The position numbers and the translations under genes are program-made. Positions 52,668-52,859 of a stretch of 64,000 bases of DNA are shown in pieces; the first letter of the stretch is position 1; each line of letters starts with the position of its first letter. This stretch comes from Bacteroidota bacterium (lineage in GTDB: Bacteria > Bacteroidota > Bacteroidia > Flavobacteriales > Flavobacteriaceae), in assembly GCA_031408435.1 (NCBI GenBank), contig JANNWM010000047.1, forward strand, positions 9,349 to 73,348. The letters are read 5' to 3'. The notes under the pieces were generated by a model. It had not been told where the DNA came from, made no database searches, and saw only the letters and a program-made list of their open reading frames with translations.

Positions 52668-52859
52668 TTATATATTTATACCTGGTCTGTCGTTTCTTAT
52701 TGGAGAATTTATTTCGTTTAAATTATTATTCTTATTTAATTCGATACCTGGTCTATCATTTCTAATCGGTGGTTGAATCTCACCACTTCCAACCGAACTA
52801 AAAGCAGTTGTTGACAATAATAATGCGAAAATAGCTAAAGTAGTAGATAATGTTTTCAT
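52668..52859 (-). CDS. 63-aa secreted peptide precursor with a duplicated PIRNDRPGI motif
   Basis: Signal peptide MKTLSTTLAIFALLLSTTAFS; the two repeat copies differ only at synonymous sites; own promoter upstream. Confidence 0.85.
   Translation of the reverse strand: MKTLSTTLAIFALLLSTTAFSSVGSGEIQPPIRNDRPGIELNKNNNLNEINSPIRNDRPGINI

Follow-up and report, generated by a model that had tools for sequence, protein, structure and literature searches.

A duplicated proline-rich peptide gene is most likely the signal gene of a peptide/TPR-kinase/regulator module in Flavobacterium

A 63-amino-acid (aa) open reading frame (ORF) that carries the same Pro-rich core twice was analysed in a 64,000-nucleotide (nt) stretch of contig JANNWM010000047.1 (assembly GCA_031408435.1, a Bacteroidota bacterium of the Flavobacteriaceae), hereafter the window. 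The ORF is most likely the signal gene of a previously undescribed, widespread Flavobacterium module that consists of a peptide, a tetratricopeptide repeat (TPR) kinase and a response regulator. We regard it as probable that the peptide is the cognate ligand of the kinase in an autoregulated peptide/kinase/regulator circuit with pherotype-like alleles. That the signal acts between cells is plausible and is put forward more tentatively. Held with the same reserve is the proposal that this would be the first family in Gram-negative Bacteroidota to signal from cell to cell by peptides that fall into pherotypes. The outline of that family, in which a Sec-exported precursor (lipoprotein-anchored in many relatives) with 1–6 Pro-rich cores would be read extracytoplasmically by a TPR kinase, is likewise a possibility somewhat short of probable. 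No prior description of such a system in Bacteroidota was found in the full-text literature searched.

Translation of the minus-strand ORF from 52859 to 52668 gives MKTLSTTLAIFALLLSTTAFSSVGSGEIQPPIRNDRPGIELNKNNNLNEINSPIRNDRPGINI, and the gene is laid out as follows.
52668–52859, minus strand: precursor gene, 63 aa, with a signal peptide, a short linker, core 1, an Asn-rich spacer, core 2 and a 2-aa tail.
52797–52859, minus strand: Sec-type signal peptide, residues 1–21, MKTLSTTLAIFALLLSTTAFS, invariant or nearly so across alleles.
52743–52781, minus strand: core copy 1, EIQPPIRNDRPGI, residues 27–39, which fits the family motif.
52716–52742, minus strand: Asn-rich spacer, ELNKNNNLN, residues 40–48, part of the orthologue comparison below.
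52677–52715, minus strand: core copy 2, EINSPIRNDRPGI, residues 49–61, followed by N-I and the stop codon.
Cleavage of the signal peptide after A-F-S was predicted by eye with the -3/-1 rule, and a lipobox cysteine is absent from the signal peptide in the precursor clade of the window. A preliminary description of this DNA had pointed to a duplicated nonapeptide, PIRNDRPGI, and re-reading of the sequence bore this out. Copy 1 is encoded by CCG ATT AGA AAT GAT AGA CCA GGT ATC at 52769–52743 and copy 2 by CCA ATA AGA AAC GAC AGA CCA GGT ATA at 52703–52677; five of the nine codons differ, all five synonymously. The repeat period of 22 codons and the E-I-x-x ahead of each copy were also as described. 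The actual repeat unit is longer than the nonapeptide, comprising ~13 aa with the pattern EIxxPIRNDRPGI (residues 27–39 and 49–61). Core copy 1 matches the family motif [DE]-I-x-P-x(4-6)-[KR]-P, and the EIxPPIxxxRP of the window fits the consensus.

The precursor gene is the first of a conserved module whose order is operator box, precursor, TPR kinase, NarL-type regulator, second box and small membrane protein. The gap between precursor and kinase is 30 nt and that between kinase and regulator is 19 nt, with no terminator in between. The same arrangement was observed for every close precursor homologue wherever the contig reaches far enough. The other elements of the module in the window are listed below.
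52998–53022, minus strand: operator box 1, AACAAAATGTATAGTAAAAGTGTAA, with the imperfect palindrome TATAG-N5-GTGTA, inside the repeat at 52993–53037.
52969–52976, minus strand: putative -7 element, TAATTTTG, which fits TAnnTTTG; a conserved leader of ~100 nt separates it from the ATG.
52776, minus strand: allelic breakpoint at the third base of codon 28, identical upstream (promoter, leader) and unalignable downstream (core, kinase 5' end).
50577–52637, minus strand: sensor histidine kinase, 686 aa, with the start possibly at the ATG at 52622.
49883–50557, minus strand: NarL/LuxR-type response regulator, 224 aa, from the ATG at 50557, in line with 224-aa gene calls in relatives.
49819–49843, minus strand: operator box 2, AACAAAATGTACAGTAAAACTGTAA, with the perfect palindrome TACAG-N5-CTGTA, 21 nt before TAATTTTG.
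49790–49797, minus strand: second TAATTTTG, 21 nt after operator box 2.
49389–49739, minus strand: hydrophobic small membrane protein, 116 aa, with no family.

The kinase family is widespread in Flavobacterium, and a single-sequence locus search with the kinase in GTDB representative genomes gave no close relative. A search with the kinase alignment yielded 80 loci from species-representative genomes, 75 of them with enough upstream DNA (individual loci, from this and the other searches, carry L numbers here). A small same-strand ORF with a signal peptide lies directly upstream of the kinase at 68 of these 75 loci. A Pro-rich tail on this ORF was found at 59/75 loci as compared with 9/1088 control windows (0.8%); typically it reads (D/E)-I-(D/E)-P-P-I-x-P-x-K-P and stands at the very C-terminus. 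Two or three tandem precursor genes are present at eight loci. Loci with the module include those of F. columnare and F. davisii, and the culturable type strains F. swingsii DSM 21789 and F. terrae DSM 18829 carry it. At 6 of the 68 loci, all with more distant kinases, the upstream ORF is Gly-rich, and four of these ORFs hold 3–6 tandem repeats, for example six copies of DSRGGQVIGGNKKLD. Specifically, L067, L073, L077 and L085 have 3–6 tandem Gly-rich units, such as DSRGGQVIGGNKKLD or EIGGTQSAPRK, ahead of kinases that are 36–41% identical to that of the window, and L070, L078 and L087 have single-copy Gly-rich versions. The Gly-rich precursors make up a second class of peptide that goes with this type of kinase. 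At L091 (5183–6922), precursor allele P0128 is followed by ~1.7 kb without a called gene at the kinase position, and the kinase may have been lost or have decayed there. The full module of L030/L097 and the operator boxes of L092, L093, L099 ('Limnohabitans sp. MAG20') and L105 ('Rhizobium sp. Q54') lie on contigs binned in proteobacterial metagenome-assembled genomes (MAGs); all of these are probably mis-binned.

Comparison of alleles indicated that the core is exchanged together with the N-terminal part of the kinase. The window and L005, whose precursor has three copies of ITPxLRPRDxGF, are 97.8% identical over promoter and leader, give no blastn alignment across the core and ~117 kinase codons, and are 86% identical beyond. 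The kinase proteins of this pair are 23–38% identical over residues 1–120, 53–80% over 121–330 and 97–100% over 331–480. L008 and L027, from the same MAG and with shared flanks, are 95–98% identical up to about codon 22, ~50% across the core and the initial ~300 nt of the kinase gene, and 83–98% thereafter. The same break between leader and core separates L088 from L089, where L088 ends before the kinase. Metagenome contigs from runs X4, X5 and X8 match the leader down to 52776 and then diverge: X4 and X5 continue with TPTLRPRDAG, and a contig of the window type is also present in both, while X8 continues with TPPLRPGIEN, a further allele. Over 55 loci, the distance between peptide tails was compared with the distance between kinase segments in partial Mantel tests that controlled for kinase-domain distance. 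Co-variation was found with kinase residues 30–130 (partial r 0.24, p 0.0005) and 131–330 (partial r 0.19, p 0.002) and not with residues 331–430 (partial r 0.00, p 0.47). The N-terminal TPRs are the most divergent segment of the kinase. The same core recurs across species, and different cores coexist within species, a pattern that reads as the signature of long-lived specificity alleles. On this comparative evidence, the core and the kinase sensor appear to vary together as allelic specificity groups.

The precursor itself is rare in protein collections. A search of 5.8 billion proteins returned four close homologues, and a profile search of 1.84 billion representatives gave 10 matches, including seven further homologues; with only 10 profile matches, the precursor family is visible only through its synteny with the kinase. 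All homologues found share the leader MKTL(S/T)TTL.IFALL(L/F)S. Their leaders are near-identical, and the cores agree inside each protein and differ between proteins. The homologue cores are two copies of DIQPPIRNDRPG, two of DITPPIRNDRPG, the three of ITPxLRPRDxGF, three of DITPPLMPQRPG, two of EIEPARRPQIPP, two of IDPV(V/I)KPARPN, two of DIEPIKLPR(D/N)P, and single copies of DITPPLMAKKPDP and of EIQPTKRPATPEV; the core ITPILRPRDPGF was taken as non-cognate to the kinase of the window. The core copy number is 1–3, or 3–6 in the distant Gly-rich type, and the spacer in other alleles is 3 to 10 aa long. In single-copy relatives the motif stands at the extreme C-terminus. No family was found for the precursor, its representative relatives or the 116-aa protein in Pfam and NCBIfam scans. 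A DUF6567 match was rejected, as it reached 21.9 bits against a cutoff of 27 and covered the lipoprotein signal region only; a gp12-short_mid match on a Gly-rich repeat protein passed its cutoff and was set aside as a low-complexity repeat artefact. In L006 (5470–7752), a 96%-identical relative, the kinase block at ~211–330 matches the L005 allele and not the window, and L006 may be a recombinant or a diverging intermediate.

Many relatives differ from the precursor of the window in their anchoring. A lipobox-like cysteine is present in 30 of the 59 relatives with a Pro-rich tail, and TADE, TVEE or SNDE comes next in many of the examples listed. The surface-export signal of Bacteroidota lipoproteins has been described as Q-A-(D/E)2 or SDDFE (PMC5080379), and the post-cysteine T-A-D-E and T-V-E-E resemble it. 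The precursor of the window contains no cysteine, and the lipoprotein export signal as defined by a lipobox Cys plus polar-x-(D/E)2 at +2 to +5 is therefore absent from it. Judging from these sequences, the ancestral form of the precursor may have been a surface lipoprotein, and the clade of the window appears to have lost the cysteine and duplicated the core.

The preliminary description had read the silent differences as purifying selection on a peptide and hence as a sign of a real ORF. For five substitutions placed at random in copy 1, the probability that none changes an amino acid is P = 0.0004, or P = 0.075 given their placement at third positions, and the silent pattern of this single window is suggestive, not conclusive, evidence for selection on the peptide. 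At the family level the signal is strong: comparison of copy against copy in ten precursors (synonymous sites S = 107, nonsynonymous sites N = 355, differences sd = 45.5 and nd = 17.5) gave a proportion of synonymous differences (pS) of 0.42 and of nonsynonymous differences (pN) of 0.049, and thus a pN/pS of ~0.12 within genes over the ten alleles. The two copies in the window differ at a pS of ~0.9, which argues that the duplication is old and that the identity was kept by selection and not by recent conversion. Recent duplication or gene conversion was rejected on this ground as the source of the identity in the window; it may apply to L005 (pS 0.10). The octamer PIRNDRPG is unchanged in all copies of the window, L003 and L004 and is altered only in copy 2 of L006, which is degenerate (PISNDRLGI, with two nonsynonymous and zero synonymous changes relative to the window). 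Orthologues that keep the octamer are only 71–79% identical in DNA. The orthologue comparison gave the following values for each segment.
Core copies: pN 0.03–0.20, pS 0.53–0.69.
Post-leader linker: pN 0.45–0.56, pS 0.26–0.76, pN/pS ~0.6–1.7.
Asn-rich spacer: pN 0.09–0.18, pS 0.72–0.82.
Leader: pN 0.06–0.08, pS 0.20–0.26.
The core is constrained and the post-leader linker is free of constraint. The Asn-rich spacer is moderately constrained as well and thus no neutral filler. The unusually low pS of the leader fits homogenisation of the leader by recombination, with the cores remaining old.

The earlier argument needs one qualification. A silent-only pattern cannot name the coding strand, because the antisense ORF at 52582–52776 (plus strand) shares the wobble positions; it, too, reads one 9-mer, IPGLSFLIG, twice without change. 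In 11/11 alleles, whose core DNA is wholly different, the minus frame stays open and begins with a conserved ATG and signal peptide. Stop codons interrupt the antisense frame in the window, L003, L088 and L090, and its start is not conserved. The antisense ORF is not shared by other alleles and was rejected as the true gene. The conserved start, the signal peptide, the position before the kinase/regulator pair, and the promoter and operator upheld the earlier claim of a real ORF, and together with the family statistics they indicate that the small ORF is a gene selected as a peptide.

A 45-nt element occurs in exactly two copies in the 64-kb window (0 expected), at 52993–53037 upstream of the precursor and at 49814–49858 between the regulator and the 116-aa gene. 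Across species, its 25-nt box core reads AACAAAATGT-N2-GG-N-AAAACCGTAA, with the palindrome TACGG-N5-CCGTA. The consensus of the Bacteroidota sigma-A -7 element is TAnnTTTG, and this sequence stands exactly 21 nt past the box in 34 of 53 occurrences, with TAnnTTTA at the same position in most of the others. Box matches with up to three mismatches numbered 40 at the two expected positions as opposed to 5 elsewhere in 1.17 Mb. The exact box and promoter together were found in 18 stretches in ~185,000 species genomes, nearly all of them the module. The lineage of the window has a symmetric box variant, TACAG-N5-CTGTA (G-to-A and C-to-T), and exactly the regulators with this variant box have Gln in place of Glu and Thr in place of Ser in the recognition helix of the helix-turn-helix (HTH) domain (TLSAIQKRK as compared with S.S.IEKRK). 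That Gln should go with A-T and Glu with G-C makes chemical sense, and the co-variation ties the adjacent regulator to the box. The palindrome is centred ~30 nt ahead of the -7 element, where class II activators typically bind, and the regulator may induce the precursor operon from this site. A sigma-70 scan gave 30 promoter-like matches against 22 expected with a tool that does not hold Bacteroidota promoters. An inverted repeat at 52583–52655, whose 31-nt arms are 81% complementary, covers the precursor–kinase gap together with the two possible kinase starts, and it might lower translation of the kinase relative to the peptide. The operator box was also observed at L092 824–876 and L098 6418–6470 (F. 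davisii 90-106), 320–390 nt upstream of a gene for a 419-aa protein whose N-terminal sequence has the look of a 2-amino-3-ketobutyrate CoA ligase / 8-amino-7-oxononanoate synthase-type aminotransferase. Its -7 region differs, and the case may represent an additional member of the regulon or a remnant.

The gene for the 116-aa membrane protein behind box 2 is the likely output of the circuit. Its homologues follow the regulator in L001, L003, L006, L008, L036 and L090 with 35–39% identity, whereas the kinases of the same loci are ~70% identical; the membrane protein thus changes far more quickly than the other parts of the module. In L094, the box is followed by a similar 108-aa membrane ORF. 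An inverted repeat at 49740–49803 (29-nt arms, 97% complementary) overlaps the -7 element and the 5' leader and ends at the ATG of the 116-aa gene, and L003 retains a hairpin of different sequence ahead of its homologue. The repeat may serve as another operator, or it may fold in the RNA and hide the start codon.

The kinase and the regulator form a HisKA_3/NarL-type two-component system. The kinase has a lipoprotein-type N-terminal signal, ~8 TPRs (residues ~40–360), a long helix, a transmembrane (TM) segment at ~431–452, HisKA_3 and HATPase_c. HATPase_c scored 41 bits (cutoff 26.4) and HisKA_3 scored 23.1 bits, just under its cutoff of 24. In the kinase alignment Cys27 is nearly invariant and His500-Asp501 are invariant. 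As the lipoprotein-type signal and Cys27 precede the TPRs and the TM segment follows them, the TPR array is extracytoplasmic. An AlphaFold2 (AF2) model from the kinase alignment has a confident all-alpha TPR array at residues ~40–360 with a predicted local distance difference test score (pLDDT) of ~90. Foldseek matched this array to LGN/Pins with a template-modelling score (TMt) of 0.75 and an E-value of 6e-10, and to RapI, RapF and a Rap-CSF complex with TMt 0.5–0.7; it matched the kinase core to DesK and VraS. LGN/Pins bind extended peptides in their groove. Among Pfam and NCBIfam models, no RRNPP family match was obtained for the receptor, which hit generic TPR models only. The receiver domain of the regulator scored 32.5 bits (cutoff 30.2), its HTH stayed below the Pfam thresholds, and the full-length protein gave weak matches to MctR, UvrY and NarL. 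A 248-aa ORF with a TTG start over-extends the regulator.

From these features the following circuit is proposed. The precursor would be exported by Sec, and its leader removed after A-F-S, leaving ~42 aa. The remaining propeptide would carry the two ~13-aa Pro-rich cores, EIxxPIRNDRPGI. One or two core units would be presented to the N-terminal TPRs of the kinase, and their binding would alter its phosphotransfer to the NarL-type regulator, as co-variation and fold suggest. A dimer of the regulator would then bind the palindromic box TACNG-N5-CNGTA ~30 nt upstream of TAnnTTTG, to judge from the sequence features and the comparative data. At the promoter of box 1 it would act on the precursor–kinase–regulator operon itself and close a feedback loop; at that of box 2 it would control the downstream small membrane protein gene as the output. 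The core and the N-terminal TPRs would exist as matched, mutually exclusive natural alleles, that is, as specificity groups analogous to pherotypes, and the two (elsewhere 1–6) identical cores could multiply ligand yield or valency per precursor. Within this scheme we infer the sign of regulation, the proteolytic release of single cores and the peptide–TPR binding. The preliminary description had likened the gene to multicopy pheromone precursors, and the analogy appears to fit, in that the gene heads a peptide/TPR-kinase/regulator operon, has alleles of 1–3 copies and is swapped together with the sensor at its core.

The closest functional parallels lie in Bacillota. As in the Rap-Phr and other RRNPP(A) systems, a small gene beside the receptor encodes a Sec-exported propeptide with a C-terminal active part, the receptor is a TPR superhelix (the kinase sensor superposes on the Rap structures named above), signals are duplicated within and as whole genes with identical or diverging copies, and there is a diversity of receptor/peptide specificity groups. 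For Phr, propeptides in which the pheromone is duplicated in tandem, and intragenic signal duplications, have been documented (PMC5199041; PMC11343458). In contrast to RRNPP(A), the TPR domain here is the extracytoplasmic sensor of a membrane kinase and not a cytoplasmic receptor, so that the peptide need not be re-imported by Opp; the host belongs to the diderm Bacteroidota; Pro-rich cores of ~11–13 aa take the place of penta- to heptapeptides; and there is no family membership at the sequence level. The module also resembles agrBDCA, comCDE, comQXPA and blp in that the precursor shares an operon with a kinase and a regulator, a putative regulator site upstream of the operon may allow auto-induction, and a hypervariable cassette of mature peptide and kinase sensor lies between conserved flanks with alleles that coexist in one population. 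It differs from them in lacking AgrB, ComAB or ComQ, in an ordinary Sec signal instead of a double-glycine or AgrD-type leader, in a soluble TPR array instead of a polytopic membrane sensor, in a HisKA_3/NarL-type instead of an HPK10/LytTR-type system, and in its multi-copy precursor. The module thus belongs to neither RRNPP nor agr/com and, by analogy, would work like both designs combined.

Within Bacteroidota, FimS/FimR of Porphyromonas gingivalis and other kinases share the layout of an N-terminal anchor, periplasmic TPRs, one TM segment and a cytoplasmic kinase. The FimS model (NCBIfam NF053520) matched residues 129–460 with an E-value of 1.4e-7 and 30.2 bits, far below the equivalog cutoff of 600, and the present module adds a precursor and an operator box. 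We know of no peptide ligand gene described for FimS. Several identical cores with short spacers in one secreted precursor are also found in yeast alpha-factor, fungal mating pheromones and apidaecin, with a copy number that varies between alleles as it does here (1–6). Those eukaryotic precursors have defined cleavage sites for Kex2 or dipeptidyl peptidases in their spacers and act on G-protein-coupled receptors, whereas no conserved cleavage motif is visible in the present family.

Signalling by ribosomal peptides with matched peptide/receptor specificity groups is textbook knowledge in Gram-positives and essentially undescribed for Bacteroidota. If the proposal is correct, Flavobacterium, which is abundant in freshwater, soil and fish disease, carries a widespread and self-contained peptide-sensing circuit. 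Its receptor would be of a new design, in which a histidine kinase bears a periplasmic TPR array, and its natural alleles would show diversity such as serves in kin discrimination. The circuit would also provide a ligand candidate for FimS-like TPR sensor kinases and a compact promoter/operator/regulator set with a predicted base/amino-acid specificity switch. Two questions become testable: peptide signalling across the diderm envelope, and why signal precursors go multi-copy.

Several observations weigh against a cell-to-cell signal, or against parts of the circuit. A Sec product in a diderm reaches the periplasm, the compartment that it shares with the sensor, and a signal between cells needs an unexplained route across two outer membranes; this periplasmic co-location without an evident outer-membrane route is the main weakness of the quorum-sensing reading. 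Neither a dedicated peptidase nor a dedicated exporter shows linkage to the module, and comparison of the precursor homologues revealed no conserved cleavage motif flanking the cores. The promoter/terminator scan found no terminator or separate promoter that would set the ratio of peptide to kinase. The fold matches of the sensor are generic for TPR arrays, partial Mantel tests tend to be liberal where ancestry is shared, and the co-variation of regulator and box concerns one lineage and is a single evolutionary event. L004 keeps the core of the window, yet its kinase is only 37–53% identical to that of the window over residues 31–90, and the N-terminal sensor thus diverges even without a change of core. 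In addition, the runs that hold the window sequence are DNA metagenomes only (freshwater sediment).

The strongest alternative, which we nevertheless consider unlikely, is that the small protein regulates the kinase from the periplasm as an accessory factor, either inhibiting it by feedback or serving as its co-sensor, in the style of CpxP-CpxA or ExoR-ExoS, and acts in the producer cell only. Its level, for example through turnover by envelope proteases, would report the state of the envelope and not cell density. Its main support is Sec export into the compartment of the sensor with no evident outer-membrane export or import route; the box upstream of the small gene would allow autoregulation as for cpxP, and many relatives are lipoproteins and not free peptides. 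Binding of the peptide to the TPR domain is common to this explanation and the ligand proposal. An accessory regulator, however, gives no obvious reason for mutually exclusive peptide/sensor alleles that coexist in one population, or for a core that is the same across species and yet differs within them, and it leaves 1–6 tandem short cores with unconstrained linkers unexplained. The post-lipobox C-T-A-D-E and C-T-V-E-E, by their resemblance to the surface-export signal (PMC5080379), point outward. The kind-specific allelic diversity and the multi-copy cores favor a shared, public signal.

It is improbable that the gene encodes a Pro-rich antimicrobial peptide or bacteriocin, with the 116-aa protein as its immunity factor and a kinase that senses the toxin as NisK senses nisin. 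The R-P and P-x-P cores and the multi-copy precursor recall apidaecin, an insect proline-rich antimicrobial peptide; moreover, the small membrane protein evolves fast and is co-regulated from the same box, and strain-specific variants are typical of bacteriocin/immunity pairs. Against this, exporter, double-glycine leader and modification enzymes are absent, the variable cassette joins the core to the kinase sensor and not to the membrane protein where this could be examined, and the box regulon holds no other toxin-like gene in most genomes. Such a function would not exclude a role in signalling. A chance frame, a noncoding DNA- or RNA-level repeat, or the antisense ORF as the gene is extremely improbable and already effectively refuted: the ORF is short, AT-rich and without a family match, and its five silent differences are silent in the antisense frame too, but the conserved start and signal peptide of a frame open in every allele, the interrupted antisense frame with its unconserved start, the pN/pS of ~0.12 and the ~100-fold enrichment of the upstream-ORF pattern all speak for a peptide gene.

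The surroundings of the module were inspected for enzymes that could mature or export the peptide. The neighbours in the window encode Metallophos, DUF6646, aldehyde dehydrogenase, RnpA, S41 peptidase and OmpA proteins, and a dedicated maturation or export protein (AgrB, a ComAB-type transporter or ComQ) is absent among them. A ribosomally synthesised and post-translationally modified peptide (RiPP) precursor was considered and rejected, as no RiPP modification or maturation enzymes were found around the gene in the window and the leader is a Sec signal and not a recognition-sequence leader. The S41 peptidase lies 1.2 kb downstream of the module.
47001–48638, minus strand: S41 C-terminal processing peptidase with PDZ and CtpB-like N-terminal domains.
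It was rejected as a linked maturase, since the linkage is lost in L003 and L090, and is probably unrelated to the module. A variant at L102 (1298–5100) has two operator boxes before secreted 130-aa and 177-aa proteins, followed by a lipoprotein with a D-T-G-A motif (retropepsin-like aspartic protease) and then a TPR kinase; the protease is a candidate processing enzyme in that variant. Elsewhere in the window, a 6227-aa ORF with SprB repeats and a CHU_C type IX secretion C-terminal domain (25134–43817, plus strand) is followed by a PorP/SprF gene (43842–44831, plus strand), and the two form a gliding-motility adhesin pair.

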